A stretch of 64,000 bases of DNA. Source: an uncultured Elusimicrobia bacterium. Lineage in GTDB: Bacteria > Elusimicrobiota > Elusimicrobia > FEN-1173. The stretch lies in assembly GCA_964482515.1 (NCBI GenBank), contig CAYZXT010000006.1, positions 28,521-92,520 on the forward strand, in the 5' to 3' direction. This document shows positions 6,285 through 25,516 of this stretch, one piece after another. Numbering within the stretch: position 1 is the first letter of the stretch; every line of letters starts with the position of its first letter. The notes beneath the pieces are model-generated. The model searched no databases. It worked only from the letters and a program-made list of their open reading frames with translations, and was not told where the DNA came from. Position numbers and translations under genes: made by a program.

Positions 6285-9200
6285 TTAAGCGGAGGTCAAG
6301 AAAAGGCCAAGAGCCTTCAGTCCTTCTTGCAGGCTCTCAACCAGGCGGAAAATCGGCACCAGGACCACAACGTCCTTGTAGACGCCCAATTCGACCTGGT
6401 CCGAAGCGAAAATCACCGCATTTTTGGGATCCAATTGCCCCGCCTTTTCCAAGGCCGACAACAGCCTGTCCATCCTCAAGATCGCTCCGTCCAGAAGCGA
6501 CACTTCCGCGCGGGCCGAAGCAATGAGCGAGGGTCTCTCGCCGGCCAGGATGATCCGGATGTTGCCTTGGCGCAACAGGACGTCGTAGTCGCGCATGAAT
6601 TCCTCCCGGTCCCTGCCCGCATTGAAGGCTGCGTCCGCCGACATGCCTTGCCAGAAATCCGGAGAGGCTTGGCGCGGATCGCGCACGATCAGGGTCAAGG
6701 TGTTCGCCGTATCCCCGGCCGTTCCCGCATTATTGGCGACGAAGGCCGCCAGCAGTCCCGACACGGAGGCGCGCGCCGCGCCCTTCTTCATCACATCCGC
6801 CGGAACTTCAGCGAAGACGTCTTTGCCGCCCCTCATCCGCGCGGAAACTTTCGTGAAGACGACGCGTCCGGCGTATGCGGCCAGAATGTCACTCCGGAAG
6901 GTTTCATGGCCCCGCGGCGACCAAGCATCGCCCGGCGCGTTGTCGCCCAAAGACTCCAAAGCCCGCCCCAGGACATAAGCGGCCCCCCGGTCCCCGCCCC
7001 TTGCCGATTCCCGCGCCAAACCCTTGGTCAAGGCCCCGCGCAGAGCCGCCGGGTCGGGCGTTCCGTCCACAAAAGCGTTGCTGGCCAGTCTGATGTGAAT
7101 CCGCGGCAGGCCCAGGGCGTCCACCCCGAAATTCCGCGCCGGAGCGATGCCGCGCAGCCAGACGCGGGCCCGGTCGCGGAACCCCGACTCCTTCACATGC
7201 CAAGAATCATCGACGGCCACAGGGACCGGAACAACGGAAACCTCCGAAACCGAATCTTGCCGGGCGGATAGGATCGCGCGGAACGCCGCGGACAGAAGAG
7301 CGGAGAAGACCATCGCCAGAACAATCCCGCCGGCCACGCCGCCCGCAAGAGACCCCGCAAGGAAACCCAAAGATACCGGCAGGACCTGCGCCGCGAAATA
7401 GGCCCACCGCTCGCTCACCACGCCCAAGCCGTGCAGCGCCTCGTGCCCGGGCACGCCCAGGATATAAAGGCCGGCGCGGGACAACACCTTGAAAACGGGG
7501 TTTGAATGATAGACGAAATGGGCGAGGGAAGGATTCAGGACTAGCGCGTGTGTGTTCTTTTCAAATTCCAATAAATCGACGCCGGGCTCAACGCGGACCG
7601 AGCGGAACCCGAACAGGGGCGGCGCGCGACCGTCGGGGGTTTCATAGGCCGCTCCCGAACGCGCAGCCGCCGCCAAAACCAATCGGAGAATCCCCATCAG
7701 GACCAGCCCCGCCAGGGGCCAAGCCGCCGCCGCGCCCAGAGAGCTGGCCGCAAAACCGAAGGACGCGGCCAAAAACTGGGCGGACACCAGGAACGCCGCG
7801 GCCGCCACGCCGAACAACGCCGCCGCCCACAGCCCCTGCCGCCAGGTTTCCCGGGACACGGCCCTGCGCTCGATGTCCTCAAACAGCCTGTCATAAGCAT
7901 CCGACTCTCCTTCCGCTTCGAACCAATCGCGAACTTTTTTCAACGCGGCGGAACGATCCACCAGCGTTTCCAAAAGCCTATTCAGCAATTCGCTCCTTGG
8001 TCCATGGGCCGTCGGTTCCGATTGAGCGTCCCTCTCGCGCGATGAATACGCCTTCGCGGCGTCCTCATAACCCATTATGTCCGAAACTTTCCCATCATCG
8101 CCCACGAAGTACACTTGCACATACTCCGGAACCCGACATTTCAAAATAAAGTCCAACATGGCCTTTTTGGGAAACGCAGCATTCACTTTAATCGTGCACG
8201 GGACCGTGATCCCCGTGGTCAACTCGTTTAGGACGCGATGGATTATCAACCATTCCGATAGACCTTCTAAATTTATACTAATTACGGATGAATTATCCTC
8301 GACCCGCGTTTCCTCCTTCGACAACGATCTCATAAGGCCGCGAAGAGTTCCCATCATCTCCTCTGTAGGATTGGTTGGTTCACCAAATTTTCCGGACAAC
8401 GCCCAGGCATGGTCGTATTGCTTGGACCCGCTATCAACTATCAAGTCCTTTGGATTCGGATGGTGGAGGAACAAATTGACGATCATCGCCTCGGGAAATT
8501 GGCCGTCAGAGACAAAGACTTTATGCAGGGCCCGCAACCCAAAAAGAGGAGACAAATCCTTCACCCGGCTGGCCTCCAAGTGAAGTATCCCCAGACTGGG
8601 CAAGGACCCCATGCCTTCGAGGGGTTCCTGTCTTTGTCCCACATTGACCAGCAACCCGAATACATTTTTTTCCACCGTGGCTGAAGGGCCAAACAGGTCC
8701 CTCGCCCGCGTTACTTGGCTTTCGAGAGTGGGGAAGCGATCCTCAGCGGCCGGGGCCGGCGTCGCAATGGGCCCCATATCGGCGAACTCTTCCGGGTGCG
8801 CGCGGCGATAAGCGACAGCCTCGGGATAGGCTATTGTTCTGAACGATTTAAAAAATCCGATCTTGACGGCCTCGGGTCGAGGGGAACTTAAAATGATCCT
8901 CGACAGCACGGCTTCGGAAAATTGCCCTTCTTCGATAACTATTTTTAAATTCCTTACGTTAAGGTATTGAACCATTTTCAGCATGTCGGAACCCTTTATG
9001 CTCGCTCCGACAAAAAAAGTAAATTCCCCGAAGGATGACGGGTGAATGCTGCTCTCATTGGCGGCTGCGGGCCCGACTATTGCTTTCAGGTCATTCGACA
9101 ATTCCGCCGCAATCACAGAATCATTGTATGACGGAAAGATATGATCCATGCGATACGTCTTCTTACCTTTTCCCGATCTGGAAATTTCAGCAATAAAAGC

Positions 9201-12200: not shown

Positions 12201-15200
12201 CCGGGGCGCCTTATTGTCGGTGAGCTGCGCGATTATTTCCCGAAGGCGCTCTTCGGAGGCCAGGGGCAAGTCATCTTCCATCAAACCGAGCTCATCGCTC
12301 AAACTCTTTAATATTTCGTTGCGCTGATCCTGCAAATCCTCAACGACGTCCTCCAGCGGCTCCTCTGGAACCGCCCGTTCCTCCATCTCGCGCGGCGGGC
12401 CGGACAGGTCCACCTCCCCGATACGACCAAGGACTTTCCCAACGTCAACACTCCCCGGCCGTGGCAAAACCGATTTTTCCTTGGGAGAACGAACCGGGAC
12501 GGCACCAAGGCTTAGGAACTCACCGTCCAATTTGATCCTCTGCATGGCTTTCAGGGCAAGGTATTGCCGGTAAAGAATTTCATCCTCCTCCAGGGTCTCC
12601 GGGATACCGTTTTGAAAAATCTCATCCACAACGTCCAAATGCCGCAGGGCCAAGGCAAACGGGTTGAGGTTTACTTCCCCATACCGCTCCAACCAAGCCG
12701 ACGCGGCCGCTTCCAATTGCGTTCGCGATATTTCCTTCCTTCCGTAGGCGATCAGGGCCAGTTGGAATATTTTCTTCGGCGCCAGGGAAAACAGCCCCTT
12801 CCAGTCACCGGCAATCCCCCTCTCCAAGTCGCGCTGAAAATAGACCGACTCATGGTCATTGTCTTGCGTTATGCTTCCGGGGAAATGTTGCCGCATTGCC
12901 CTTTTGTGACGCAGATCCTCCAAATCTTGATACACATCCTCAAAGGGGTCCGCCGGGGCCTGCAACCCCGCGAGCGAAAGAAAAAAATCCGGCGCCGAAG
13001 TGGGGGTAAGCCCCGCGAAATCCCGAGTGAATAACCCATGTCCGGCTTCATGCTCCAGGGTGTTCAACCAATCTTGGCCATCGAACTGGTCCTCCCTAAA
13101 AGCGATGTCCACCTTCTGCGCTTTGTAGGTCCCAGCTGCGGACTGCCCCGCGGGCTTGAGGCTGATTGTCACCGGCCGTTGGTGGACAGGAAGGATGAAT
13201 TGGGCGATGCGGCCGATGGCCTTCACTTTGTCCAGGCCGCTTCTGAACTCCAGGGAAGCAAGCGCCTTCCGGCCGGGCAATTCTTGCCCCCTCAGCATCC
13301 TCCGCAGATAGATGGGGCCGTACACCCTCTCCACGGCCTCTTCCGCCGAAACGCCCGACGCCGCCACGAGCAGGGCCCGCTTGAATTCCCGCGGCGTGGG
13401 CCGCTCCCGAGACCGCGGCAGGGCGTTCTGTATCCAAAGGTGCGCGCGGACGATGTAAGCCATGTCCTCGTCCGACAGGGCCGGGGCCTTCGTCCCGAAT
13501 TCCGTGACGATGTCCAAAGCGTATTCCGATAAGTCATCCTTGTCGTAATCCATCTCGCGGCGGAAGATCACCCGGTTCTGCAAGGCCGTGGAAAGCCTTT
13601 CGCGGCCGCTGAAGTCGGCCCCGTTGATCGTGGCGATGAACGCAAAACCCTTCGCGTCGGTGTTATCGTCGGTCAGCACGTCGTTCAGCTTCCCTTCCAA
13701 ATAGCCGCTGGGCAATACATCCAACTCGCTGACCACTAGAACGACCCCGTTCTCCTTGGCCCAAACTATGGCCTTCTCAAGCTCGTCGAACCGCGGCGAG
13801 GCGTTGATGTGGCAAAAGCTGCGCGGGCCCGGCGCGGCCGCCCCCGCCTTGACCGCCTCATAACCGCTCGACTCCAGAACCCGCACCACGGTCACGTCCT
13901 TGCCGCGGCCGGAGGCTCCCTCCAAAATCATTCCCCGCTTTCCCGCCGCAAGCCCGTTCCGTTTCATACGATATTCCCGCATGATGAGGAAATCTCCCAC
14001 CGCCGCGGCCAACCTCATCGTGGTGCGCGATAGGGTAAGGGCCCTCGACCTATACAATTGGGCCCCCTCGTTGCGCAGATCCTCTATCCAGGCGTTTTGG
14101 AGAGCCTCCGCGTCCACCGCGAATTTCAGGCGGAGCGCGTGCCGGAGCGCGACGCGGCCCTCCGGACTCAAGCTCGGCGAGAACATTTCCCACGCCGCAA
14201 GGAGCGCTTCTTCCACGATATTGCCGGATCCGCTCAGCACCTGCGCCCGGGCGGACAGTTCCTGGAGGTCGCGCAAAGAAATTCCCTGTCCCTCCTCCCA
14301 CCCCGCCACCCGGCGAACGGTCTCAAATACCCCGAGCAGCAGGGCCCGCAAGGCCGCCGCGTTCGGCGCATCCGGCGACACGTATTCTTCGAGCCTTTGC
14401 CGGAAAAACGCCTCGTCGAATTCAGGGAAGGCGACGGTGGGGACGTGCGGGGCGAGGAAATCCTGATACTTTCTGTCCTGCAGGGTTTCCTGGTTCCCGG
14501 TGAAAACGACCTTCTTGCCCTCCATATCGATCTTGCGCCCTTCGATCCACATGTAGGGGGTTTCCCCTTCTCCCACGAACAGCCCCCCGAAGAACCGCCA
14601 AAAATCCGGCCGCGCCAGGTTCGCTTCGTCCAGGACCAGCAGCGCCGGCCCATCGTGCAAAGCCCAGCGCGTGATGTCGGCGAACGCGGAGGCCCTGCCG
14701 GTCTCATCGTCGTTCGAGTCCTGTTCCTGGGCGTCCACCCCGATCGTCACGGGCCCGAACATCCGCAGCCCCAGCGCGTCCGCCAAACCTTTTGCCGCAA
14801 AGCTTTTTCCCGTCCCGGGAGACCCTTTCAGGAACACCGCCGGGGATTTTGCCAATATTCTCCGCACCCGCCCCAAACGTTTATCCCAACTTTCCTCGAC
14901 CGGGCCGGCCTTGTCGTTGATGGAAGGAGCTTGATCAACGGACGCGTTCGCCTTTCGGAAAAGGGCGCGGTAGAAACCCTCCCGGTCATCGCCCAGGTGC
15001 GCCGCGATCAGCGCGTCCTGAATCAGCTCGAGCGCCCTCCCGGCGCCCGCGCGATCAAAACTTTCGGGCACGCCGGCTTCGTCCAACAAATCCAGGCTGA
15101 GGGTATCCGCGAATTCCCAAAAACGGTCCTTCCATGTGGCGGGAGCGACGATCTTGTTCATCGCCGCTTTCAGTTTCGGCCCATGAATGCTCCTCCCAGT

Positions 15201-18200
15201 CAGCCCCGCCTCCTTCGGCCGAAATGTCCGCCGCGCCGCCGTCCGCAGAAACGCGGCCACGTTCGGATCGTCCGCGTAATCGTCAAGATAAACGTCCTCA
15301 AAGGCCCGCATCCAATCCAGCGTGCCATCGGGGTTTCGAGCCTGGCGGCACAGGAGCCGGAGGCGTCCCAGGCTGAAATCCGCCCGAGCCGGATAGAGCC
15401 CGCGCCGCGCCGGCGGAGGGACCGTCTCGAAAGCCCTTCTCAAGGAGAGCACCTTCTCAATATCGCTTTCCGTGAGAGCTCCACTGAATTCGCGCTTCAA
15501 TTCCTCCACTATGTCCCGCACGGAAATGTCCAACACGGCGCGGTGAAGAACCGAGACGCCGGCGCCGCTCCCGATATGAGAAAGAAGGATCAAGCGTCCC
15601 GTTAAAACGTTTTCCCCTTTGCCGGCGAAGGGACGGACCTCGCCGTTCACCACGAGATAGGGATTTTCATGCAAAGCCGTTTCCAACTGGCGCAGGAGAT
15701 CCGGATTGGATTCCATCCCCGCCAAAACGACGGTTTCTCCCCGTTCCAAGGCCTCCAACACCTGCCTCTTGACCGCCCGCAAACGCCCCCCCGGCAACAG
15801 CTCGCTCGCCATCGATAGATCGTCCAGGATGGTCGCCGGCGTGACCGGATAAACAAGGGGGGGCTGGCCGTTCCGTTCGGAGACGTCCCGCATGATCCGC
15901 GCCAACAGGCCGGACGGGTCCGATCCTTCAACGAGCGACACCCGCCGGTCCCGCGCCATTTCCCACGACTCCGGATCCGGGGCCCTGGTCCGGCGGACCG
16001 CCGGCAGCATTCCACGATAACGCAACGGGACCTCCACGCCGACGCCCAATTCAATTTCCAATTCGCCGCCCATATGCAAAAGACGGTGCCACAGCGACTC
16101 CGGAATTTCCGGATCGGTTATAAGGACCCGGAGACGCCCTCCGTCCGCGCCCATCCGCTCCAGCAATCCCGCGCCCTGGGACAACGTCCCCTGGGAATCG
16201 ATGCGGGTGAACTCAAACAGCTGGTGCTGCGTTTCCCGGTTCAAGACCCACGCGCGCTCCGCCGGCCAGGCGGTCTCGCCCGCCGGCACGACCCGTTTAT
16301 TCTCCAAGGCGCGCCGCCCGTAGCCGCCCTCCGCCCAATGGACGGAAAAACCTTCCCGCGCCGCCACCCATTTTCCGTTGGAAAGGATCCCGCCGTTCAA
16401 GAGGGCCTGCCGGACCATGTGGGACAACCGGGTGTTGGGGATTCCCTGCTCATCTCGCCACACGCCCCCTTGGATCAAGAGGGGCCGCCCTTCCCTCATG
16501 GCCCGGACGAGTGCGCCCTCTTCCCAGCGCACGCTTCCGTTGGGCAGAAGCCGGTAGCGCGCGACCAGCGCATCCTTAATATCGATGTCGTCGGACTCGA
16601 AAAGTTCCGCGCGCAGGCCGTTGAAAGCCTCCGGATCGTCGACCTGGGACAAACCTTCCAGCGGATCCGCGTAATCCGCGTCCGCTTGGAATTCCCCGGT
16701 CAGGGAGCGTGAATAAAAATCAACCGAAAATTCACGCAGCTGGTCCTCCCGCACCGCCCCAACGATGCGGAGCGACGGAGAGGCCTTAACGCCCAAATAC
16801 TCCGGAGAGTCCCCGAACAGCTGATTGAATCCCGCCACGGTCTTTGGGTCGGAATTCGTGTAGTCCAGGAACAACACGCCGCCCCGCTCGATCAATTGAA
16901 GCAAGGGGCTTTTCGCCTCCCCAAACCGGCCGTTTATCACGCGCGCGGGATTGAGCAAATCATCCAAATCGGTGTCATCCCGCAGGGTCAGCCGCAAATA
17001 CGGAATGTTTCCGTTCGCGGCCACGATTTCCCTTAGCCGCACATCCAATGCCTCCACATCCCGGGGCGTATTCACGAAGGTCAACCCGCGACCTTCGTTC
17101 AATAGATCGGTCAGGCTCGGATCGGCCCACGGCGAACCCATCGTCATCGGGAAACGGCGGAATATTTTGTTCCACCCCGTGTGGACGGCAACGGCCAGAA
17201 CAAAGCCGATCACCATGGCCAGGAGGGAGTAAAGCGGTCCATCGAACCCGGACAGGAACAACCGGGGCGCGGCGAGGGCGGCGAGGTTGAATAAGACAAC
17301 GGCGAAAAGGCGGACGGCGAAATCAACGGGGGATTTATTTTCATGGCGGAAAACGAAAGACGCCTGGTGCGCGGCGTAATAAACCGCCGCCACCAGCCAG
17401 AACGACATGACTATCGCCAAAAGCAGCGGATTCGCCTCCAGCAACACAGCCTTCAAATTCCATGCCGCCATCAGGATGAGGCCAGGCGCGCGGCCCATCC
17501 AAAAGGCGCGCCAGCGCGTCAACGTCGGCTGCCCCCGCGCTTCGATTTCCTTCCGCGCCGAAGCGGCGGGAGCCAGGCCCGCTTCTTCAATCACGGAATA
17601 GCCAAGCAGCTTGTGACTGATCATAGGATTCCTCAGCCACTCCGGCGCATGCTTGACCGCATTTTCGTAATAGGCCTTCGTGCTCGACAGGATCAGCGAG
17701 CGGCTTCCCCACAGGTTTTTCCACCAAGGAACGCTCAACCTCCGCGGCGGACTGAACCTCACCGACTGAAAGGAATCAGCGCCTCCCACGGGGAATTCGG
17801 CGACCACCGACGGCGCGCCCGGTCGCGCAATCAACAAGCCGTTCTCTCCGAACCCGATACTCCACCCCCACCACGCCTTGGCTTTCTCAATCAGCGCGCG
17901 AAGATTTTTACGCCTTTCACCTGAGGGAAGTTTGTTTTCCCTCCACCGCGCCTGGCTGCCCTCAACAGTGGCGGCCAAGGCGTTCGCCTTCACGGCGAAA
18001 TCATGGGCCTGGATCCTTCGCTGGAAGGGTTCGGCCAACCGCCGAATCAGCCCCGGCGAGGTAAACCGTGCGAAGATCAGGGAGATGGGTTCTCCGGCGA
18101 AAATTTTCTCGATGGGGAGTGGATCGCGGGAGAAGATGTCCATGTAATTTTTGGCCTGATCGATGTTTTCCACCTTTGGCGTGACGACGACGTAAGACGC

Positions 18201-19853
18201 ATTCTTCCGCCGCCAAAGCGCCGTCATACCCTCGGTGTGGAACCCGCCGGTCACCAGGACGGCGGAGGTTTGCTTTTCTTCTTTCATTTTCCTGAGCAGG
18301 TTTTCGGTGAGGGCTTCATTGCGGGCCAAAGCCAGACGGCAGAAATCTTCGAACGGTTTCAGCAATTCCGCGCGTATGGCGGGAAAAGCCGGAGAGCCCG
18401 ACGACAGAGAGCGGGCCCGGTCCGCCATGTTGAGGATCAACGGGCGTCGTTCCGTATAATCGGCCCAATGCCGCGGCGTCATTTCCGTGCGGAGCAATTT
18501 CGTCAGCAGGGCCTGGTCGCGTCCCAACCCCGCCAGTTCCTTTTGCGCCGGCTCAAAAGTGAGCCCGGCTTCGACTGTTTTTTCCATCCGTTCCAACTCG
18601 TCCAACAACTTGTCCCGGTTTATGCGCTCCGCGGACTGGACGTAGGTCATATAATCGGACAACTGCGGATAGCCGGTCAGGTCGATGTTCTTTTCCCGGC
18701 AAAGATCGCGCATATACGCGTAATATTCCCCGTAGCTCCTTTGACCGGCGCGGTACTCGACGCTCGCCCGCACCAGTTCATCCAGGGACTCCCGGCTCAG
18801 TCGCGATACCAGGCGATCGATCAAATCAAGCCGCTCGCGTTCCACCTTTTTGAAATCCAGTTTTTTCTCCCACCGGATCGCCCGGGACAACAGGGCCACG
18901 TTGGGATAGGCCCCGGCATCCGCGCGGGAGGAAAGAAAATCCACGTAAGCGCCCAGCCCTGTTTTACCCGCCTGGAAAGTTTGATAGAAGCGGTCGAACT
19001 CCTTGAGCCCGGGCGAATAAATTTTTTCTTTCAGACCGCTCACGGCCTCGGCCAGACCCGAGAGGAACTCCTCCGCTTCCCTCCGGCGGTCCTGGGCCGA
19101 GAGCACCGCGCGGGTGTTGTCGGCGTAAAGGTCGCCCGTCTCCACGCCCCAGAGGAGCGGCGCGACCTCCGACACCAACCCCAAATATTCCGCACCGCCC
19201 ACGTATCCTTCCTCCAGGAAATAGTCCGCGAGCTGTTGGTTCATTTCTTTCCCGGCCTCGGGCAGGGCCTTGTATTTTTCCATCTCGAAGTAGCCCTCGG
19301 CGCCCTCCAACCCCACGAGCTTCACCCCGCGCCCATCCTTCAGTCCCTGCAGGATGCGGGCGATGTTCTTTTGCGCGTCGTAGGCGCCATGGATGTCTTG
19401 AATGTGGATGATGAGGGGCGAATCCGATTTAGCCAAATGGATTTCCCGGACGCTTCCATAGGGCAAGACCAATCGGGAAAGCCAAGCGGGAACAATCCCG
19501 TTCTTGGCCCACTTCACGTTTTCAGAGAGGTCATGGGCGGACAAGGGAGCCAGAGATGGGGCGAGGGTGGATCCGTTCAGGGTTTCGGGAAGTCCCAGCG
19601 GGATTTGGCCGGTGGGAAGCTGGGCGAGGAGTTGATAGTCCCGGGATGAAAGACTGTTCGCGCGGCCCGGGTTATTTTGCGCCGAAGAGCGGGATACGGA
19701 TCTTCGTTCCTCCCAAAAGTTCGCCTCGGCCAAGGGCGATGCGACCGTTGAATAAAATAACAAGGCGCAGAGGGCGGCGGCGAGGCTCTTTTTGCTCGGT
19801 CCTTGCGCGCTGAAAGGCCTGAAAATCGAGCGGGTTCGGCGGATTATATCCAT
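6285..19853 (-). CDS. giant (4,522 aa) polytopic membrane protein: conserved N-domain, multi-AAA+ block, two HExxH motifs, 4 tandem modules, C-terminal domain
   Basis: ATG 19853 to TAA 6285-6287, uninterrupted. Composition is protein-like throughout, while overlapping ORFs are R/P/G/A-rich shadows. Motifs read directly: GSPGTGKS (14802-14825) with LLVLDEANLA (~14611-14645); GASGRGKD (13896-13919) with VVLVVSELD (~13715-13750); IATINGADFSGRERLSTALQNRVIF (~13560-13640); HEAGH (13038-13052); HEALH (7431-7445). Hydrophobic clusters lie near 17150-17480, 11860-12075 and 7270-7850. Confidence 0.9.
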   Translation of the reverse strand: MDIIRRTRSIFRPFSAQGPSKKSLAAALCALLFYSTVASPLAEANFWEERRSVSRSSAQNNPGRANSLSSRDYQLLAQLPTGQIPLGLPETLNGSTLAPSLAPLSAHDLSENVKWAKNGIVPAWLSRLVLPYGSVREIHLAKSDSPLIIHIQDIHGAYDAQKNIARILQGLKDGRGVKLVGLEGAEGYFEMEKYKALPEAGKEMNQQLADYFLEEGYVGGAEYLGLVSEVAPLLWGVETGDLYADNTRAVLSAQDRRREAEEFLSGLAEAVSGLKEKIYSPGLKEFDRFYQTFQAGKTGLGAYVDFLSSRADAGAYPNVALLSRAIRWEKKLDFKKVERERLDLIDRLVSRLSRESLDELVRASVEYRAGQRSYGEYYAYMRDLCREKNIDLTGYPQLSDYMTYVQSAERINRDKLLDELERMEKTVEAGLTFEPAQKELAGLGRDQALLTKLLRTEMTPRHWADYTERRPLILNMADRARSLSSGSPAFPAIRAELLKPFEDFCRLALARNEALTENLLRKMKEEKQTSAVLVTGGFHTEGMTALWRRKNASYVVVTPKVENIDQAKNYMDIFSRDPLPIEKIFAGEPISLIFARFTSPGLIRRLAEPFQRRIQAHDFAVKANALAATVEGSQARWRENKLPSGERRKNLRALIEKAKAWWGWSIGFGENGLLIARPGAPSVVAEFPVGGADSFQSVRFSPPRRLSVPWWKNLWGSRSLILSSTKAYYENAVKHAPEWLRNPMISHKLLGYSVIEEAGLAPAASARKEIEARGQPTLTRWRAFWMGRAPGLILMAAWNLKAVLLEANPLLLAIVMSFWLVAAVYYAAHQASFVFRHENKSPVDFAVRLFAVVLFNLAALAAPRLFLSGFDGPLYSLLAMVIGFVLAVAVHTGWNKIFRRFPMTMGSPWADPSLTDLLNEGRGLTFVNTPRDVEALDVRLREIVAANGNIPYLRLTLRDDTDLDDLLNPARVINGRFGEAKSPLLQLIERGGVLFLDYTNSDPKTVAGFNQLFGDSPEYLGVKASPSLRIVGAVREDQLREFSVDFYSRSLTGEFQADADYADPLEGLSQVDDPEAFNGLRAELFESDDIDIKDALVARYRLLPNGSVRWEEGALVRAMREGRPLLIQGGVWRDEQGIPNTRLSHMVRQALLNGGILSNGKWVAAREGFSVHWAEGGYGRRALENKRVVPAGETAWPAERAWVLNRETQHQLFEFTRIDSQGTLSQGAGLLERMGADGGRLRVLITDPEIPESLWHRLLHMGGELEIELGVGVEVPLRYRGMLPAVRRTRAPDPESWEMARDRRVSLVEGSDPSGLLARIMRDVSERNGQPPLVYPVTPATILDDLSMASELLPGGRLRAVKRQVLEALERGETVVLAGMESNPDLLRQLETALHENPYLVVNGEVRPFAGKGENVLTGRLILLSHIGSGAGVSVLHRAVLDISVRDIVEELKREFSGALTESDIEKVLSLRRAFETVPPPARRGLYPARADFSLGRLRLLCRQARNPDGTLDWMRAFEDVYLDDYADDPNVAAFLRTAARRTFRPKEAGLTGRSIHGPKLKAAMNKIVAPATWKDRFWEFADTLSLDLLDEAGVPESFDRAGAGRALELIQDALIAAHLGDDREGFYRALFRKANASVDQAPSINDKAGPVEESWDKRLGRVRRILAKSPAVFLKGSPGTGKSFAAKGLADALGLRMFGPVTIGVDAQEQDSNDDETGRASAFADITRWALHDGPALLVLDEANLARPDFWRFFGGLFVGEGETPYMWIEGRKIDMEGKKVVFTGNQETLQDRKYQDFLAPHVPTVAFPEFDEAFFRQRLEEYVSPDAPNAAALRALLLGVFETVRRVAGWEEGQGISLRDLQELSARAQVLSGSGNIVEEALLAAWEMFSPSLSPEGRVALRHALRLKFAVDAEALQNAWIEDLRNEGAQLYRSRALTLSRTTMRLAAAVGDFLIMREYRMKRNGLAAGKRGMILEGASGRGKDVTVVRVLESSGYEAVKAGAAAPGPRSFCHINASPRFDELEKAIVWAKENGVVLVVSELDVLPSGYLEGKLNDVLTDDNTDAKGFAFIATINGADFSGRERLSTALQNRVIFRREMDYDKDDLSEYALDIVTEFGTKAPALSDEDMAYIVRAHLWIQNALPRSRERPTPREFKRALLVAASGVSAEEAVERVYGPIYLRRMLRGQELPGRKALASLEFRSGLDKVKAIGRIAQFILPVHQRPVTISLKPAGQSAAGTYKAQKVDIAFREDQFDGQDWLNTLEHEAGHGLFTRDFAGLTPTSAPDFFLSLAGLQAPADPFEDVYQDLEDLRHKRAMRQHFPGSITQDNDHESVYFQRDLERGIAGDWKGLFSLAPKKIFQLALIAYGRKEISRTQLEAAASAWLERYGEVNLNPFALALRHLDVVDEIFQNGIPETLEEDEILYRQYLALKAMQRIKLDGEFLSLGAVPVRSPKEKSVLPRPGSVDVGKVLGRIGEVDLSGPPREMEERAVPEEPLEDVVEDLQDQRNEILKSLSDELGLMEDDLPLASEERLREIIAQLTDNKAPRSILTALGFLGDKDLTARKAKILAIAQAKLKSNKAPAGSRFRMRRLALAAGVLLASGILALLVVHANSGSSALPAMIPRIPEPELLRGMPNYLPLVIIVGLSLLASMVYGGIKLSAARAEGVSTEDSRLTRFLGFLGRIRISQMGRLAGLFGRVASETVGSRYDGIEGAHESKARDDNNDVQISESVSARPVPSVLSEESRYSKMKELSTTVSSLLDAEASAFVQRRATPGREFGPPGTGTLYLPKFLRNPLRGFRRGGMPTASTRPPLLVHGLPANGGNLIAGEFVHFLKDRGFEVVVVSGTLDEPQAAAYLKEAPYIIMSARELQSRVEAAYIYAVARRDRERAPVLKEAPVDSVYPDNVLDASGHFPTIEEQRRILVETFGENQVRLLLHGNLGLTLDRDYEVSWDALWKKCPSIESIIIREDGPSDLRIFNGLRGLRTIFIPPGKFSDDDVGLFFGNENDPMRIVVHVWDEEIVRQSYSASTFTPGLSNENLISEMEEACREFVPPHLTRDIYVRLGVSRKYEIKPTKVATVPDLMKMTEYSRRASILIFVDHDQFTDADMARIVLSAPFPEGVSIEEIQEIIMQGETPRFMDYSKAVAYCRAHPEEFTVTLPGATPPAAQRTVQPADTPDPFPAIEEQREALIDIFGPEKVKVDRNGDLELTVDDRDLFPYRECESLWKHCPSIRTIIVGENGTLSINFYEGIRGLRNIQLPAGRFHRVELERFYREAENSGRIRIYSDNPSGGMKWFSAADFIPGSGFKEVRAIIREKLGRHNMMSSVTAEFMQDMWQLRIRLSQGLGVDELRVLTGFSEMREVFLMSEGFQIDEFFMTFFILTSPVPENVHFIFSSDEGESRSMSYSEAVAYYRAHPKQFSLMALPGTTPPAAQRTVQPADTPDPFPTIEEQRRILVDTFGENQVHLRDDGPLELMLDRDYAVSWDVLWRKCPSIESIIIKEDGPSDLRVFSGLRGLKTMSIPEGKFRKKDIRSFYQDYSPAPKAFIAEISRSGKGKKTYRMDHIFPSYNDSVIAAELSNDLKAIVGPAAANESSIHPSSFGEFTFFVGASIKGSDMLKMVQYLNVRNLKIVIEEGQFSEAVLSRIILSSPRPEAVKIGFFKSFRTIAYPEAVAYRRAHPEEFADMGPIATPAPAAEDRFPTLESQVTRARDLFGPSATVEKNVFGLLVNVGQRQEPLEGMGSLPSLGILHLEASRVKDLSPLFGLRALHKVFVSDGQFPEAMIVNLFLHHPNPKDLIVDSGSKQYDHAWALSGKFGEPTNPTEEMMGTLRGLMRSLSKEETRVEDNSSVISINLEGLSEWLIIHRVLNELTTGITVPCTIKVNAAFPKKAMLDFILKCRVPEYVQVYFVGDDGKVSDIMGYEDAAKAYSSRERDAQSEPTAHGPRSELLNRLLETLVDRSAALKKVRDWFEAEGESDAYDRLFEDIERRAVSRETWRQGLWAAALFGVAAAAFLVSAQFLAASFGFAASSLGAAAAWPLAGLVLMGILRLVLAAAARSGAAYETPDGRAPPLFGFRSVRVEPGVDLLEFEKNTHALVLNPSLAHFVYHSNPVFKVLSRAGLYILGVPGHEALHGLGVVSERWAYFAAQVLPVSLGFLAGSLAGGVAGGIVLAMVFSALLSAAFRAILSARQDSVSEVSVVPVPVAVDDSWHVKESGFRDRARVWLRGIAPARNFGVDALGLPRIHIRLASNAFVDGTPDPAALRGALTKGLARESARGGDRGAAYVLGRALESLGDNAPGDAWSPRGHETFRSDILAAYAGRVVFTKVSARMRGGKDVFAEVPADVMKKGAARASVSGLLAAFVANNAGTAGDTANTLTLIVRDPRQASPDFWQGMSADAAFNAGRDREEFMRDYDVLLRQGNIRIILAGERPSLIASARAEVSLLDGAILRMDRLLSALEKAGQLDPKNAVIFASDQVELGVYKDVVVLVPIFRLVESLQEGLKALGLFLTSA
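8040..11100 (-). repeat. four in-frame tandem protein modules (~805, 798, 762 and ~700 nt) inside giant ORF 1
   Basis: Module starts are marked by (P/H/R)FPT(I/L)E(E/S)Q at nt ~11100, 10295, 9497 and 8735. Each has two LRR-like halves and ends in (Y/M)xEAVAYxRAHPEEF-type linkers. Hand-counted DNA identity between copies: 85/88 (9475-9562 vs 10273-10360), 58/60 (9439-9498 vs 11041-11100), 115/125 (9281-9405 vs 10883-11007). Confidence 0.85.
13560..17150 (-). other. multi-AAA+ (AAA_5/MoxR/midasin-like) block, two units with intact Walker A/B and upstream degenerate units
   Basis: There are two P-loop/Walker-B pairs (see the CDS entry), each followed by an ATxN...GR..L..AL.NR-type segment. Upstream units lack the P-loop Lys but keep Walker-B-like strands (GGVLFLDYTNSDPKTVAGFNQLF; GETVVLAGMESNPDLLRQLETAL). 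Confidence 0.6.
18085..19722 (-). other. conserved N-terminal domain of giant ORF 1 (paralogous to 44230-45870)
   Basis: Alignable by eye block by block with giant ORF 2: FWEERR/FWQDRR; IHIQDIHGAYDAQKNI/VLVQDAHEIYSAQLNI; LVGLEGAEG/LIGLEGAAG; LWGVETGDLY/MLGVETPTLY; LDFKKVERERLDLIDRLVSRL/LDFKAVESERLQLVKILSHRL; VLVTGGFHTEG...VVVTPKV/VIVVGGFHAPA...VTVTPKV; PLPIEKIFAGE/VPLEKMFLGE. Confidence 0.85.
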
Positions 19854-19994: not shown

Positions 19995-21299
19995 TTATTG
20001 TTTGGTTCGCGGGGAAAGATATTCGGCCAAATGAAGGGTCTTAATTTTGGATTTAGCGCGGCGCAGGCCGAACCGGACCTGGAGCAGGCAGGAGATGCTG
20101 GAGGTGAGAACGTAGTCCGCCCCAGTCGAAAGGATGTTCTTGGTCTTGCGGTCCAGCACCGCGCGGGAAATCTCCGGGTGGACGAAACTGTAGGTCCCCC
20201 CGCCGCCGCAGCATTGCTCCGCTTCGGGCAACTCCCGGTAATCGATGTTCGCGGACCGGGCGAGGATCTGCCGCGGCGGATCGACGATCTTCTGGGCGTA
20301 GCGCGCCTTGCAGGGGTCGTGGTAGGTGACTTTGTTGTTTTGTTCAAGCGCCGGCGACCGAAGGCCTTTTTCCAAAAACCATTCGCTGAGGTCGCGCGTG
20401 CGCCGTGAAACGGTTTCCGCCCGGCGCAGCCAGTCGGGTTCGCCGTCGAACAACTGCGGATATTCTTTGATTGTCGAGGAGCAGGAGGAATCATCCACCA
20501 GGATGATCGCTTTCGGATATTTCTCCAACTCGACGATGTTCTTGCGGGCCATGGCCCGCGCCGCGTCGAGGTCGCCGTAGCTGACGCCCGGCATGCCGCA
20601 GCAAACGTTGTCGGCGCAGCCGGACTTGAAACCCGCCGAGCGTATGATCCGCGCGGTGGCCTCGCCCACCTGCGGCATGATGAAGTTCGATCCGCAGGCG
20701 ACGAACTGAATGATTTCCGCGTCCGGCGGAGGCGTTGCGTCGCCAAGCCTGTCGCGTAAGAACGTCGAAGGGACTTCCTCCGCCAGTTCTTCCGCGTCCG
20801 CGAGTTTGGGGCTGATCATCCGCAGCAAACCGGCGCGGTTCATCCAGCGGCTGACGCCCAGGCGCTTGCCGATAAACAGAATTTTCAGGAACGGCTCGAA
20901 CACCTTCGGCCGCGGCAGCAGGACGCGCAGGACGAACTTCAGGAACAGCGGCTGGCCGTGCTTCTCCGTGATCTTTTCCCGGGCCGCCACCATCAGCTTC
21001 GCCGTGGGAACCTCGGAAAAACACACCGACGTGCAGATGCCGCAGAGCAAACAGGTGGAGAAAAGCTTTTCCGCCTCGGCCGGGTCCGCGAGGCGGCCTT
21101 CCAGCACCGCGCGAAACGCCTGGTTCCGCCCGCGCGGCGACAGACCCTCGTCGCCCGTGGCCAGATAGGTCGGGCAGAACGACGTGCAGAAGCCGCAGCG
21201 GTTGCAGTGCATCGCGTCCGCGTAGTAGGCCTTGTCGGCCGGGCGGTTCAAAGCCGCCGGGCGGGAGATGAGGTCGATCTTTGACGGTTCGTCGGGCAT
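19995..21299 (-). CDS. glcF: glycolate oxidase-type Fe-S subunit (GlcF-like, 2x 4Fe-4S + 2x CCG domains)
   Basis: CNRCGFCTSFCPTY and CLLCGICTSVC ferredoxin motifs; CCGMPG and QCCGGGGTY cysteine-rich CCG motifs. Confidence 0.8.
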   Translation of the reverse strand: MPDEPSKIDLISRPAALNRPADKAYYADAMHCNRCGFCTSFCPTYLATGDEGLSPRGRNQAFRAVLEGRLADPAEAEKLFSTCLLCGICTSVCFSEVPTAKLMVAAREKITEKHGQPLFLKFVLRVLLPRPKVFEPFLKILFIGKRLGVSRWMNRAGLLRMISPKLADAEELAEEVPSTFLRDRLGDATPPPDAEIIQFVACGSNFIMPQVGEATARIIRSAGFKSGCADNVCCGMPGVSYGDLDAARAMARKNIVELEKYPKAIILVDDSSCSSTIKEYPQLFDGEPDWLRRAETVSRRTRDLSEWFLEKGLRSPALEQNNKVTYHDPCKARYAQKIVDPPRQILARSANIDYRELPEAEQCCGGGGTYSFVHPEISRAVLDRKTKNILSTGADYVLTSSISCLLQVRFGLRRAKSKIKTLHLAEYLSPRTKQ

Positions 21300-21300
21300 A

Positions 21301-23319
21301 TCAGGCGAAGATCGTCGGATTCAGGATGTTCCCGGGATCGCAGACGGCCTTCACGCGGCGGTGCAGTTCCGTCGGAACGAAGGGCCTCGGGTGGGGATCC
21401 AGTTCGAGCTTGTCCGCCGGAAAGGGCCAGAGGCGGAGCGTGACTTGGACGATGACGCCCAGGGTCCCCCAGGCGCCGAGGAAAAGCTTTTGCGCGTCGT
21501 ATCCCGCCACGTTCTTCATGACCTTGGCGCCCAGGTCGAGCAGTTCCCCTCCGGGCAGGACGACCTTCAGGCCGATGACCTGGTCCCGCAGGGACGGCGC
21601 GCGGCTTGAGCGCGTGGACAGGATTCCGCCCAGCGATCCGTGTCCGCCCAGGTGGAGATATTGCCCGGCGGATTTCAGGACGGCGGCCAGCTCGACGGGC
21701 GAAGCGCCCGCCTCCACGGTCAGAGTGAAATTGGATCTGTCGTGGTCGACGACCCGCGTCAGCGCGTCCGTCTTGAGCGTGAAGGCCCCCTCCGGGACGA
21801 GGAGCTTCTTGGTGCCGACGCCTTGGACGTAGAGGGGACGCTTTTGCTTCTCCGCGGTGAAAAGGATGTCGCGCAGGTCGTCCAGCTTCACGGGCCGCAG
21901 GCCCCCGCGCTCGGGAAGGGGTCCGGATTTCCAGGGAACCGATTTTTCCCCCTTCGCGTCGGGGATCAGTTTCTCGGGGTTGCAAAAATTATCCGGATCG
22001 AAGGCGCGTTTCAAGCCGCGGAAGAAATGCAGCGTGCTCGGCGTGAATAGCCAGCGCATGGCCTCGCGCTTGTCGATGCCGATGCCGTGTTCCCCGGAGA
22101 TGCTGCCGCCCAGGTCCACGCAGACCTTGAGCATTTCATACCCCGCGGCCTTGACCCGCCGCGTCTCCTCGACGTCGCGCTCGTCGAAAACGATGTTGGG
22201 ATGGAGGTTGCCGTCGCCGGCGTGGGCGATCAGGCCCATGCGCAATTTCTCCCGCGCCGCGATGGCGCGGATGCGCCGCACCGCTTCGGGCAGGAGCTGC
22301 CGCGGCACCACGCCGTCCTCGACCAGGACGTTGGGGCCGAGGCGCGCCATGGCCGGGTAGGAGCCGCGCCGACCCTCCCAGAGTTTCTCGCGTTCCGCCT
22401 CGTCTTTGGCCTGGCGGATTTCCCCGCAATCGTTCTTCCGGCAGATCTCCCGGATTTTCTCCACGGCGCGGGCCGTCGCCGCTTTGTCGCCGTCCACTTC
22501 AATCAACAACACCGCTTCGGCGTCCAGCGGATATCCGGCGTGGACAAAAGCTTCCACCGCCGCGATGGTCGTCCGGTCCATGATCTCCAACGTGGTCGGG
22601 ATGATCCCGGCGGTCACGATGTCCGTCACGGTCTGCACCGCGGCCTCCATCATGAAAAATGAAACCAGCAGCGTTTGCACGTCTTCCGGAACGGGAAGGA
22701 GCTTCACTTCGATCTTCGTGACGATCCCCAGCGTGCCCTCGGAGCCGACGAATAGCCCCGTCAAGTCGGGCCCGGGATCGTCGATCGACACTTTCACCAT
22801 TTCCCCGTCGGGAAGGACGACCTCAAGGCCGGTAACGTGGTGTGTGGTGACGCCGTACTTCAGGCAATGGGGGCCGCCCGCATTGGTGCCGACGTTGCCG
22901 CCGAGGGTCGAGGCTTTCTGGCTGGCGGGGTCCGGCGCGTAGAACAACCCCAGCGGCGCCAGTTCCTTCTGCAAATGGAGGTTGATCACGCCCGGCTCCA
23001 CCCAGGCGCGACGCCGCTCTTTGTCGATGGAGATGATTTTATTCAGCCGCGCCAAGTGGATGACCACGCCGTTCTCTTTCGGGATCGCGCCGCCGCAAAG
23101 GTTTGTGCCCGCGCCGCGCGCCACGAAGGGGACGCCCGCGTCGTGGGCCGCCTTCACCACAGCCGCGACCTGCTCCGCGCTGCGCGGCAGGGCCACGGCG
23201 CCTGGCAGGGTCTTGTCCACCGCGCCATCGTAGGAATAGACGAACATCGAGGCGGGATCGGTCAGGAGGCCGTCGGGGTCCAGAATGCTTTTGAGTTGTT
23301 TGAGCAGCGCGTCATTCAC
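21301..23319 (-). CDS. glcD: FAD-linked oxidase, apparent GlcD-GlcE fusion
   Basis: The N-terminal ~460 aa have an FAD_binding_4/GlcD-like order (ARGAGTNLCGGAIP..., HAGDGNLHPN, SGEHGIGIDK). The C-terminal ~200 aa look like a second, GlcE-like FAD-binding module (LYVQGVGTK...VVDHDRSNFTLTVEAG). The gene ends 1 nt before glcF. Confidence 0.8.
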   Translation of the reverse strand: MNDALLKQLKSILDPDGLLTDPASMFVYSYDGAVDKTLPGAVALPRSAEQVAAVVKAAHDAGVPFVARGAGTNLCGGAIPKENGVVIHLARLNKIISIDKERRRAWVEPGVINLHLQKELAPLGLFYAPDPASQKASTLGGNVGTNAGGPHCLKYGVTTHHVTGLEVVLPDGEMVKVSIDDPGPDLTGLFVGSEGTLGIVTKIEVKLLPVPEDVQTLLVSFFMMEAAVQTVTDIVTAGIIPTTLEIMDRTTIAAVEAFVHAGYPLDAEAVLLIEVDGDKAATARAVEKIREICRKNDCGEIRQAKDEAEREKLWEGRRGSYPAMARLGPNVLVEDGVVPRQLLPEAVRRIRAIAAREKLRMGLIAHAGDGNLHPNIVFDERDVEETRRVKAAGYEMLKVCVDLGGSISGEHGIGIDKREAMRWLFTPSTLHFFRGLKRAFDPDNFCNPEKLIPDAKGEKSVPWKSGPLPERGGLRPVKLDDLRDILFTAEKQKRPLYVQGVGTKKLLVPEGAFTLKTDALTRVVDHDRSNFTLTVEAGASPVELAAVLKSAGQYLHLGGHGSLGGILSTRSSRAPSLRDQVIGLKVVLPGGELLDLGAKVMKNVAGYDAQKLFLGAWGTLGVIVQVTLRLWPFPADKLELDPHPRPFVPTELHRRVKAVCDPGNILNPTIFA

Positions 23320-25516
23320 GAGGGGGATATTCTAGCGGTTTTGCGAGCAAATTACATTCGGCGGTTTTACCGTCGGTCCGCCATTCGACGGAGCCGTCGC
23401 GGCCCGTCACGAAAACCCGCGACCCGGGGAGCGCCGCCCCCGCCTCCCGGGACAACTCTTTCGAGGACGAAACGATCCAACGGGGATTCGCGTCGGCCAG
23501 GAAATTCTCGTCCACCTCGCCCGCGCCGTGTCCCGGCGACTGGAGGACGGACAGCGGCTCCAGCAGAAGGGCCGCTATTTTCTTTTGCGCGCGCGGCGAA
23601 AGATCGTTGGCGAAGAGGGCCGTTTGGCCGCCGAGCGTGGCGGTCAAAGCGATCGACGGCAGGGCGCGCCACTCGACGGAATCTTCGATCCACGCCTTTC
23701 CCGTCGCAAGGAAGCGGACCGGGATTTTCTTTTTCTGGAGGACCTTCCTAAGTTCCTTCATTTGGAAATTCTCCCAAACGGACTCCGGGCAAAGGAACTC
23801 GTCCACGGGAAATTCGCCCAGGACAGCGGACAATCCCGGCGCGTGGCGTGCATCCGCCCGCGTCAGGATGACGCGATGCAGCATGGCCACGGCGCGGCGG
23901 CGCAGGAACGGAACCAGTTTATAGGTCCCGAAGTTCGCGCCCCCGCCGTTCACCAGCGTCACCCGCCCCGCCGGGCTGGTGACGACCTGCGCGTCGCCCG
24001 CGCCCGCGTCCAGCCAGACGACGGAGAGGCGGCCCGCTTCGGGCTTCGACCGCGCCGCGTACAGCGCGGGCAAGCCGCAGGCCCAAATCGCGACGACCAA
24101 AAGCCAATGCCGCCGGAAATCGGGGCGCGGCGATGCGCTTTCCTCCGACCGCGGATGGATCGCGCCCCACACCAGGAACGTCGCGACCACGATCACTGAG
24201 AGAAGGGCGGTCTGCAGGCCGTTCCAGGGCGGCGTCCATTCCGCGCCGGGGACCTTCGCGAACAGCTCCACCGCGCGCCAGAGGCCCAGCGCGGATTTGT
24301 CCGTCAGCCACGCGGTCCCCGCGGCCAGCCAGCCGAGTCCCGACAAGTTCATCAGGGCCAGAATGACGCCGAGCGCCAAACAAAATCCCGCCCAGGGAGC
24401 GGCCACCAGGTTCGCCAGCAAGCCGATCCAGCTGAAGCGGTGGAAATAATAGAGCAGCATGGGAGACAGGGCCAGCTGCGCCGCGAACCCGGTGAAGAAG
24501 ATCGCCGCGGTCCAACGAACCCAAAGGCTGCGGTGGCGGACCAGGGATTCCAGGGCCGGCAGGCCAAGCAGGATCCCGAGCGTTGCCGAATAGGACATCT
24601 GAAATCCGGCCTCGAACAGCGCCGAGGGCCGGAGCGCCAGCAGGAGTCCCGCGGAAAGCGCCAACGCCTGGGCCAGCCGGTCCTCCCGCTCGATCAGCAG
24701 CGCGATCAAACCGAAGGTGACCATGACCGCGGCGCGGGTCACCGGGGGGTCCATGCCCGCCATGCCGGTGTAGATCCAGGCGCAGGGGATCGCGCCGACC
24801 AGGACCACCGCGCGCGGCAGACCCAGCATCCACCAGGCCGCCAGCGCCCAGAGCCCGATGATGAATCCCACGTTGGAGCCAGAGGCGACCAACAAGTGGT
24901 AGGTCCCGCTGCGGCGGAAGTCCCGGTCCATGTCCGGAAAACCCGCGGGCTTTTTACCGAGCACCAAACCTGAAACCAGTTCCGCGGCCGGGCGGCTCAA
25001 GCGGCGGCGGTAGACCTTCAAACAATTTCGGCGTAAGAAACTCAGCCAGCGTTTGGGAGACGACGCCGGCGCCTTCTCCAGCAGCCACCCCTTCTCCCGG
25101 GCCGCCAGCTTGGAAAAAATCCCGCGGCGCGCCCAGAAAGTCCGCGCGTCGAAGGACCCGGGGACCGTCGCCTGGGGGAACGGCGAGAGTTTTCCCCGCA
25201 GGACAATCCGGTCTCCCCAGCCCGCGCCGTAGGGAAGCCGCTGAGCCTGGACGAGAATCCTTCCCGACACCTCCGCGGGAACGCCGTATTCGGGCGTTAT
25301 CTTCTCCGCCCGGAGGACGAAGCGGATGAAGCCGCGGCCGTAATCCGGGTCCCGATCCAGGCGGCCGACGACCCGCACGTTTTGTCCGGCGGCGAAGCGG
25401 TGCGGATCGCGCGGGCCGGGCGCGGGTTCCCATCCGCGGAAACGGCTGAAGGACAGAAAGGCCATGTAGAGGAGGACCAGCCCGATGAGCGGGCGGCGGA
25501 GAACGTAGGGACGCAA
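23312..25516 (-). CDS. comEC: ComEC/Rec2 DNA internalisation competence protein with C-terminal metallo-beta-lactamase-like domain
   Basis: The N-terminal OB-like region is followed by a multi-TM competence domain (YHLLVASGSNVGFI...) and a C-terminal LSVVWLDAGAGDAQVV... lactamase_B-like segment. It overlaps glcD by 8 nt. Confidence 0.85.
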   Translation of the reverse strand: MRPYVLRRPLIGLVLLYMAFLSFSRFRGWEPAPGPRDPHRFAAGQNVRVVGRLDRDPDYGRGFIRFVLRAEKITPEYGVPAEVSGRILVQAQRLPYGAGWGDRIVLRGKLSPFPQATVPGSFDARTFWARRGIFSKLAAREKGWLLEKAPASSPKRWLSFLRRNCLKVYRRRLSRPAAELVSGLVLGKKPAGFPDMDRDFRRSGTYHLLVASGSNVGFIIGLWALAAWWMLGLPRAVVLVGAIPCAWIYTGMAGMDPPVTRAAVMVTFGLIALLIEREDRLAQALALSAGLLLALRPSALFEAGFQMSYSATLGILLGLPALESLVRHRSLWVRWTAAIFFTGFAAQLALSPMLLYYFHRFSWIGLLANLVAAPWAGFCLALGVILALMNLSGLGWLAAGTAWLTDKSALGLWRAVELFAKVPGAEWTPPWNGLQTALLSVIVVATFLVWGAIHPRSEESASPRPDFRRHWLLVVAIWACGLPALYAARSKPEAGRLSVVWLDAGAGDAQVVTSPAGRVTLVNGGGANFGTYKLVPFLRRRAVAMLHRVILTRADARHAPGLSAVLGEFPVDEFLCPESVWENFQMKELRKVLQKKKIPVRFLATGKAWIEDSVEWRALPSIALTATLGGQTALFANDLSPRAQKKIAALLLEPLSVLQSPGHGAGEVDENFLADANPRWIVSSSKELSREAGAALPGSRVFVTGRDGSVEWRTDGKTAECNLLAKPLEYPPRE

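Follow-up and report, generated by a model that had tools for sequence, protein, structure and literature searches.

A probable new family of the Tiki/TraB/PrgY/GumN-Ere-ChaN superfamily at the N-terminus of giant Elusimicrobiota and Omnitrophota proteins

The window analysed here, a stretch of 64,000 nucleotides from contig CAYZXT010000006.1 of an uncultured Elusimicrobia bacterium, carries two giant open reading frames (ORFs), referred to as p1 and p2, that share a single N-terminal domain. Sequence comparison, predicted models and analogy with characterised relatives together indicate that this domain, covering residues ~128–575 of p1 and ~126–582 of p2, is probably a new and unannotated family in the Tiki/TraB/PrgY/GumN-Ere-ChaN superfamily that acts as an exported, membrane-tethered and water-activating hydrolase. 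By sequence it forms a family of its own, while its motifs and predicted structure place it in the Tiki superfamily. The two ORFs and their domains are located as follows.

6285–19853, minus strand: giant ORF p1, 4522 amino acids (aa), from the ORF list and its translation
44084–49825, plus strand: giant ORF p2, 1913 aa from a TTG at 44084
18129–19472, minus strand: Tiki-superfamily-like domain of p1 (residues 128–575), an alpha/beta core split by a helical insert
44459–45829, plus strand: Tiki-superfamily-like domain of p2 (residues 126–582), paralogous to the p1 domain

Both ORFs correspond to real genes, as p1 is identical to an NCBI protein (P0032) and p2 from its Met12 onwards (ATG at 44117) equals the database protein P0038 (1902 aa). 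Comparison of p1 with p2 yielded a 589-aa alignment over their N-terminal ~600 residues (35% identity, E 2e-97), and BLAST detected no similarity past residue ~620, leaving the N-terminal module as their sole common part. The two N-terminal domains are thus, on this alignment, homologous and paralogous copies, and scanning the window with a hidden Markov model (HMM) of the family revealed no third one.

The sequence-only reading of this DNA had placed the motifs QD(I/A)H, (V/I)GLEGA and GGFH in both giant ORFs, and translation of the four ranges involved confirmed that they are there. Specifically, 19385–19415 (minus) translates as LIIHIQDIHG, 44530–44547 (plus) yields VQDAH, and 45704–45715 (plus) yields GGFH. 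The remaining segment, VLVTGGFH, was also found, in a frame one base away from the range 18236–18262 (minus) that had been given for it. The gap between the GLEGA and GGFH strands was likewise similar in size to what had been claimed, although it amounts to about 345 aa and not ~330. Such motifs are short and mean little on their own, yet in their sequence context they are far beyond chance. Their positions, together with those of the other residues discussed below, are listed first for p1 and then for p2.

19389–19400, minus strand: QDIH of p1 (residues 152–155), exact motif position
19389–19397, minus strand: D153-I-H155, acid-x-His with which the first core strand ends; the His is the proposed general base, and the acid would orient it
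19299–19313, minus strand: GLEGA of p1 (residues 181–185), exact motif position
19305–19307, minus strand: E183 (in VGLEGA), 28 residues past His155; the Glu proposed to pair with the catalytic His
19140–19148, minus strand: G236-V-E238, closing the third core strand; family-wide third acid
18321–18323, minus strand: R511, 28 residues ahead of His539; proposed oxyanion or substrate stabiliser
18237–18248, minus strand: G536-G-F-H539, at the end of a C-terminal core strand; proposed second catalytic His
44534–44545, plus strand: QDAH of p2 (residues 151–154), exact motif position
44537–44545, plus strand: D152-A-H154, acid-x-His aligned with D153-x-H155 of p1
44627–44641, plus strand: GLEGA of p2 (residues 182–186), exact motif position
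44633–44635, plus strand: E184 (in IGLEGA), 30 residues past His154, with a two-residue insertion relative to p1
44786–44794, plus strand: G235-V-E237, from the alignment
45623–45625, plus strand: R514, 30 residues ahead of His544; invariant column R405 of the family alignment
45704–45715, plus strand: G541-G-F-H544, from the translation

Conservation was counted over 170 sequences, namely p1, p2 and 168 homologues (mostly representatives of clusters at 50% identity), and is given in p1 numbering. Five positions were invariant in all 170 (His155, Gln161, Glu183, Gly236 and Arg511), and GGFH at 536–539 was present in each of the 168 sequences that extend that far. Asp153 was found in 165 sequences with a Glu replacing it in another four, and Glu238 in 167 with Asp in the other three, while Glu222 and Tyr243 were retained in 167 and 168 sequences, respectively. 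Loss of the His and Glu positions among homologues had been named beforehand as an outcome that would refute the fold assignment, and the conservation of His155 and Glu183 is instead complete.

The same residues, in the same order, define the active members of the superfamily. The RRSP paper describes a 2His/2Glu set for enzymatically active Tiki-family proteins (E3900, H3902, E3930 and H4030 in RRSP, next to the essential R4001) and gives H85/E113 as the corresponding pair of Bcr135, while the EreC paper lists E47, H50, E78, R261 and H289. Mutagenesis in EreB/EreC and in RRSP showed that residues of this set are catalytic. The spacing from the first His to the Glu is 28 residues in p1, EreC (H50/E78), Bcr135 (H85/E113) and RRSP (H3902/E3930) alike, and that from the Arg to the second His is 28 in p1, 28 in EreC (R261/H289) and 29 in RRSP (R4001/H4030); in p2 both spacings are 30 owing to two-residue insertions. 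The motif logic that the sequence-only reading had used, with an acid-x-His, a Glu on the next strand and a C-terminal G-x-x-His, therefore agrees with the published RRSP and EreC residues. Judged by sequence and model, the domain has the hallmarks of the superfamily: acid-x(1,2)-His, a Glu ~28 residues further on, G-x-x-H, and an Arg on the preceding helix.

The domain was modelled with AlphaFold2 from an alignment of homologues, yielding confident predictions for p1 residues 110–600 (mean predicted local distance difference test, pLDDT, 87.1; predicted template modelling score, pTM, 0.83) and for p2 residues 110–607 (pLDDT 87.3, pTM 0.82). Both models follow a common layout, which starts with a beta-hairpin and continues with a strand leading into D-x-H, a helix, a strand leading into the Glu (VGLE) and a strand leading into G-V-E, after which ~13 helices (~270 residues) precede the long Arg helix, the strand leading into GGFH, a further helix and the last strand SYVVVTPK. 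In the p1 model (model numbering, to which 109 is added), strands 38–44, 70–73 and 124–128 are each directly followed by a conserved residue, and the C-terminal part of the core consists of helix 386–416 and strands 421–427 and 444–450. The conserved residues thus lie at the C-terminal ends of predicted core strands, with the Arg on the helix before the strand of the second His. In this predicted alpha/beta core, helices flank a central parallel sheet, as they do in the solved members of the superfamily. In p1 it is divided into the following parts.

19119–19472, minus strand: N-terminal half of the core (residues 128–245), with strands ending in D153-x-H155, E183 and G236-V-E238
18369–19118, minus strand: helical insert (residues 246–495), all-helical in the AlphaFold2 secondary structure, with ~13 helices
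18129–18368, minus strand: C-terminal half of the core (residues 496–575), with the long helix carrying R511, the strand followed by GGFH, and the strand SYVVVTPK

Comparison with solved structures in the PDB gave the pairs of values listed below for members of the superfamily.

2rad, Bcr136, Ere-like: 9.9 and 9.9
2qgm, Bcr135, Ere-like: 9.4 and 8.5
8bqs_DQ, TraB family: 9.3 and 8.8
5t09, HopBA1: 9.2 and 9.6
6xcq, EreC: 8.8 and 7.7
2g5g, ChaN: 8.7 and 9.0
5w6l, RRSP: 7.8 and 7.6

Confident models, invariant residues and a spacing like that of EreC and RRSP hence support the ChaN/TraB/Tiki/erythromycin-esterase-type fold that had been proposed from the motifs. A merely convergent or generic likeness, in which an unrelated three-layer alpha/beta (Rossmann-like) domain displays these short motifs by chance, appears very improbable because five residues agree in their sequence order, in their placement relative to secondary structure and in their spacing (28 and 28), and because a family of the same superfamily is independently and recurrently matched in Pfam.

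These Pfam matches emerged most clearly after removal of the helical insert, when Cofac_haem_bdg (PF04187), which Pfam itself labels 'Tiki superfamily, ChaN', matched 6 out of 10 cores and subsequently 10 out of 23 cores (E<=1) in a panel with at most 50% mutual identity. The best core reached E 1.6e-6 and 28.7 bits, and was the sole one to exceed the cut-off of 27.7. Among the 23 cores, the only families matching more than one core were Cofac_haem_bdg and DUF5682 (two cores). Erythro_esteras (PF05139) matched a single core (12.6 bits, E 0.11, below its cut-off of 26.4) and neither p1 nor p2, while TraB/PrgY/GumN (PF01963) gave no hmmscan match for p1, p2 or any of the cores. Two matches to PAH_ZNF598 within the insert of the short members P0007 (residues 288–338) and P0094 (residues 276–318), at 30.2 and 27.7 bits against a cut-off of 25, were set aside as a probable artefact of helical composition.

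The best relative found at the sequence level was the N-terminal part of E. coli YehM, which is a DUF5682 protein (E 2.4e-98) encoded at L082:7696-9975 (E. coli K-12) within yehLMPQ, beside the MoxR AAA+ ATPase gene yehL and a VWA protein. The core of P0013 matched Pfam DUF5682 (PF18934) with E 2.1e-5 and 23.6 bits, under the 26-bit cut-off, and p1 and p2 themselves gave no Pfam match to this family. Alignment of the family core to YehM 1–260 with hhalign, using a single-sequence target, scored 34.6 (P 1.3e-4, probability 54%), a score reached by none of 150 shuffles (13.3 +/- 2.7, maximum 24.5). In this alignment, which covers ~210 N-terminal residues, PLIVGIRHH, RYVLIEGPA, RQREAFMA and VCGGWHAPALAKMW of YehM were placed opposite the four motifs of the family (His, Glu, Arg and GG(F/W)H); in the last of these, VVGGFHAPAIEKLL of p2 stands against VCGGWHAPALAKMW of YehM. 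Homology to the N-terminal ~210 residues of YehM thus appears detectable from sequence. For YehM, neither a solved relative nor a further Pfam match was found. DUF5682 may itself be an unrecognised Tiki-like family, which we regard as a lead and not a conclusion. Unlike the window domain, DUF5682/YehM lacks a signal peptide; its middle region is much shorter, and it continues into a long C-terminal part that is unrelated.

The domain is set between an N-terminus that resembles a signal peptide and a cluster of hydrophobic helices, as listed here for both proteins.

19719–19853, minus strand: signal-peptide-like N-terminus of p1 (residues 1–45), with a basic n-region and the hydrophobic segment LAAALCALLFYSTVASPLA, from hydropathy
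19698–19727, minus strand: AEANFWEERR of p1 (residues 43–52), conserved and directly following the hydrophobic segment
44219–44248, plus strand: AEASFWQDRR of p2, the counterpart of AEANFWEERR
17175–17495, minus strand: first hydrophobic cluster of p1 (residues 787–893), 3–4 helices of uncertain number ahead of AAA_5, from a hydropathy scan
46331–46483, plus strand: hydrophobic stretch of p2 (residues 750–800), 50 residues forming two helices after the N-terminal module, from hydropathy

A crude rule assigns such a signal-peptide-like N-terminus to 150 of 165 family members, 146 of them with an AxA-like site, and most of the exceptions look 5′-truncated. Roughly the motif NV(L/I)xxHA(A/S)-E-x-NFW-x-ERR is common to p1, p2 and related Elusimicrobia-type members, and W..(K/R)R occurs within the first 120 residues of 54 out of 169 sequences. 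The AE-x-NFW-x-ERR region could be a processing or sorting signal. The helices at 787–893 of p1 are predicted by hydropathy to be the membrane anchor of the N-terminal module. The minimal complete member, P0003 (807 aa), consists of a signal peptide, the domain and 2–3 C-terminal hydrophobic helices, which is the type of layout found in PrgY and Tiki. Because a signal-peptide-like N-terminus lies ahead of the domain and a cluster of membrane helices behind it, these hydropathy heuristics and the analogy with Tiki1/2 and PrgY suggest that it is most likely exported and displayed at the outer face of the cytoplasmic membrane.

By analogy with the characterised enzymes, the domain would most likely function as a water-activating hydrolase, either a peptidase or an esterase, and we infer its catalytic activity, substrate class and any metal dependence on this basis. 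In EreC, H50, oriented by E47, has been proposed to deprotonate a water molecule held by H50/E78/H289, and R261 to stabilise the transition state. If p1 works as EreC and RRSP do, its His155 would be oriented by Asp153, pair with Glu183 and His539, and activate a water molecule that attacks an ester or peptide carbonyl, while Arg511 would stabilise the transition state. The helical insert, which carries conserved positions of its own in the alignments (e.g. E..LDF....E.ER), would provide the substrate pocket or a lid; the helical subdomains of the Ere family suggest that it is possibly a lid or substrate-binding subdomain. The domain as a whole is the one 'head' module that is conserved among giant mosaic proteins with no further relationship to each other.

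Several results weigh against this hydrolase reading and the family assignment behind it. None of the Pfam or NCBIfam models covered the domain when either the whole proteins or their N-terminal domains were searched, leaving p1 and p2 unplaced. The p1 domain alone matched Cofac_haem_bdg with E 0.0033 and 17.9 bits, under the gathering cut-off of 27.7, the p2 domain gave no match to it, and the matches were restricted to positions ~158–205 of the 213-position profile, corresponding to the Arg...GxxH segment. The match to a named family that had been anticipated from the motifs was in this way weak, yet recurrent, given the 10 of 23 diverse cores described above. Alignment of the core with E. 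coli YbaP (TraB) by hhalign was not significant (probability 2%, P 0.025), and 12 of 150 shuffles reached the score obtained with the single YbaP sequence. The YbaP target profile was shallow (effective number of sequences, Neff, 2.2) because the homologue search gave only close YbaP orthologues; a permissive hhalign path placed RN and GxxH in register, and the -glob option returned a meaningless alignment of 5 residues. Profile searches of PDB sequences with the full-domain alignment, with the core-only alignment and with the single P0005 core retrieved nothing relevant. Foldseek with the whole model found no significant match in the PDB (best E 0.085), with Ere-like entries merely among the top 20, a result that is probably due to the dominance of the long helical insert. 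The convergence of D153, H155, E183, R511 and H539 on one site in three dimensions is, for its part, a prediction.

Moreover, not all members of the superfamily are enzymes, as ChaN binds haem and PMT is without the catalytic set. This raises the alternative that the domain is a non-catalytic ligand-binding module of the same fold, like ChaN with its two cofacial haems, and would serve as a periplasmic receptor or sensor head. We consider this quite unlikely, since the 2His/2-acid and Arg set is invariant in the 170 sequences, since the same residues are catalytic in EreB/EreC and RRSP by mutagenesis, and since members without catalysis, such as PMT, also lack the residue set. The Pfam match to the ChaN family, for its part, covers only the Arg...GxxH segment that is common to the whole superfamily.

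With respect to localisation, YehM, the best sequence relative, lacks a signal peptide, and p2 has just two helices between the domain and its NadD-like and HD-like regions. From this helix parity the N-terminal domain of p2 is therefore expected on the same side of the membrane as those regions, and both observations count against export. A simple topology with the head outside and the enzymes inside fits p1 and does not fit p2, and counting helices from the domain to a downstream Walker A motif gave mixed parity in the five qualifying proteins. Similarly implausible localisations have been noted by West-Roberts et al. for Omnitrophota giants. The domain might also be a Tiki-like module of the cytoplasm and cooperate there with MoxR-type AAA+ ATPases, in the manner of the YehM N-terminal region, in which case it would not be an exported enzyme. 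The in-register alignment to YehM at the four motifs, the DUF5682 match of one member, the adjacency of yehM to the MoxR gene yehL next to the presence of AAA_5 in p1, and the helix parity of p2 all point in this direction. However, the signal-peptide-like starts and AxA-like sites seen in the large majority of members have no counterpart in YehM, most members are without an AAA domain (five members of 1.6–2.1 thousand aa are without any Pfam match), p2 is without one as well, and the helices were counted by a crude hydropathy scan. We therefore hold a cytoplasmic module to be unlikely and favour the exported hydrolase.

Among known systems, the Ere family (EreA-D and Bacillus cereus Bcr135/Bcr136; PF05139) is like the window domain in its ordered set of acid/His, Glu at +28, Arg, and His at +28, and in a core interrupted by a helical subdomain. 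It differs in that its acid is part of E-x-x-H instead of D-x-H, that the insert of the window domain is much larger (~270 aa), and that Ere enzymes are soluble proteins of ~400 aa, whereas the window domain is part of proteins that also comprise a signal peptide, membrane helices and thousands more residues. ChaN (PF04187, PDB 2G5G) is a small haem-binding lipoprotein without a long helical insert or membrane helices. In Tiki1/2 and TraB/PrgY/GumN (PF01963) the first motif is G-T/S-x-H, in contrast to Q-D-x-H in the window domain, whose insert is also far larger. The MARTX effector RRSP and HopBA1 have no detectable sequence similarity to the window domain and are delivered into eukaryotic host cells, whereas the latter stands at the very N-terminus, preceded by a signal peptide, and occurs in Elusimicrobiota and Omnitrophota that are free-living or symbiotic.

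The family is large. Homologue searches returned 30 proteins, unnamed or annotated as 'hypothetical', from Elusimicrobia, Omnitrophica and unclassified metagenome-assembled genomes (MAGs), and the nearest relatives of p1 (46–49% identity) were from Elusimicrobia MAGs. A profile search of 1.84 billion cluster representatives at 50% identity gave 10,358 matches at E<=1e-3, of which 7,290 reached E<=1e-30. Among the best 150, the match always started within the first ~60 residues, and the proteins had a median length of ~2,000 aa, most measuring 1–7.6 thousand aa with a maximum of 7,623 aa. P0001 (613 aa) was considered as a stand-alone domain protein and rejected, as it is cut by the end of its contig. 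Five other members of 1.6–2.1 thousand aa gave no Pfam match whatever.

A scan of species-representative genomes yielded 163 loci, and most of the 80 listed were in Elusimicrobiota MAGs, where single genomes have many copies (isolate SAR259 at least 9 loci, OdNE BATAC.493 at least 8); further ones belonged to Omnitrophota, to MAGs labelled Planctomycetia and to 'Ca. Theseobacter'. Members also occur in same-strand tandem arrays, such as three within 18 kb at L084:2276-18424 (JGI contig Ga0558121_00751), and in L024/L026 and L025/L042, which suggests a rapidly diversifying paralogous family. Adjoining the L084 array is a large gene whose product has PPDK_N and PEP-utilizers domains. Huge proteins are unusually frequent in Elusimicrobiota and Omnitrophota, and the papers on these giants report few annotated domains and N-terminal regions in which domains can mostly not be identified, bar some C39 or S8 peptidases; the literature searched made no mention of Tiki or TraB together with Elusimicrobiota or Omnitrophota.

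A more far-reaching possibility would be that the Tiki-like head is the defining ancestral module of the Elusimicrobiota/Omnitrophota giants, possibly including those of the 'Archaeovorin' type, and serves as their built-in maturation protease. The head would then trim a conserved N-terminal propeptide (in the Elusimicrobia branch, AE-x-NFW-x-ERR) or, at the membrane surface, divide the polyprotein into its functional pieces, comparable to Tiki, which trims the N-terminus of Wnt, and to PrgY, which handles pheromones derived from signal peptides. This proposal is speculative and has a low probability in our estimation.

Beyond the head module, the two giant proteins have a different make-up. 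Against NCBIfam and Pfam, the whole proteins matched AAA_5 in p1, and only weakly NadD-like and HD-like models in p2. The 4522 residues of p1 comprise the N-terminal module, the 3–4 hydrophobic helices, ATPase-like regions, HExxH motifs, repeats and further hydrophobic clusters. Its Pfam matches past the head module were to AAA families only, whereas Pfam detected no AAA domain in p2. The regions observed are the following.

6285–17174, minus strand: residues 894–4522 of p1, all downstream of the head module
Within it, Walker A motifs at residues 1677 and 1979, with AAA_5, a MoxR-type region (Pfam, E 3.4e-10), at residue 1673
Within it, HExxH motifs at residues 2268 and 4137
Within it, four repeats of ~265 residues each, starting with FP(T/A)(I/L)E(E/S)Q at residues 2919, 3187, 3453 and 3707
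Within it, later hydrophobic clusters at residues 2596–2662 and 4010–4195
46841–47188, plus strand: NadD-like nucleotidyltransferase region of p2 (residues 920–1035), best NCBIfam E 2.5e-8, far under family cut-offs
47708–48274, plus strand: HD/dGTPase-like region of p2 (residues 1209–1397), E 1.9e-6, far under family cut-offs
3168–6121, 19995–25516, 42088–43716 and 50957–53197: flanks of the giant ORFs, with ordinary and mutually unrelated genes

The pairing of NadD-like and HD-like regions in p2 is one that we take to be reminiscent of the bacterial nadD-yqeK gene pair. The flanking genes include those for an enolase, a phosphoglucomutase, a GlcD-type FAD (flavin adenine dinucleotide) oxidase with a CCG/Fe-S subunit, ComEC, PAP2, a diacylglycerol-kinase-like protein and a sulfatase, and no conserved partner gene was evident among them.

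The probable assignment of the N-terminal domain to the Tiki/Ere superfamily would provide the first common and experimentally approachable handle on this class of giant proteins. At ~450 residues, the domain is small enough for separate expression, for mutation of the five residues named here and for assays of peptidase, esterase or haem-binding activity. The Tiki superfamily would in turn gain a very large and divergent branch, together with a possible link to DUF5682 (YehM).

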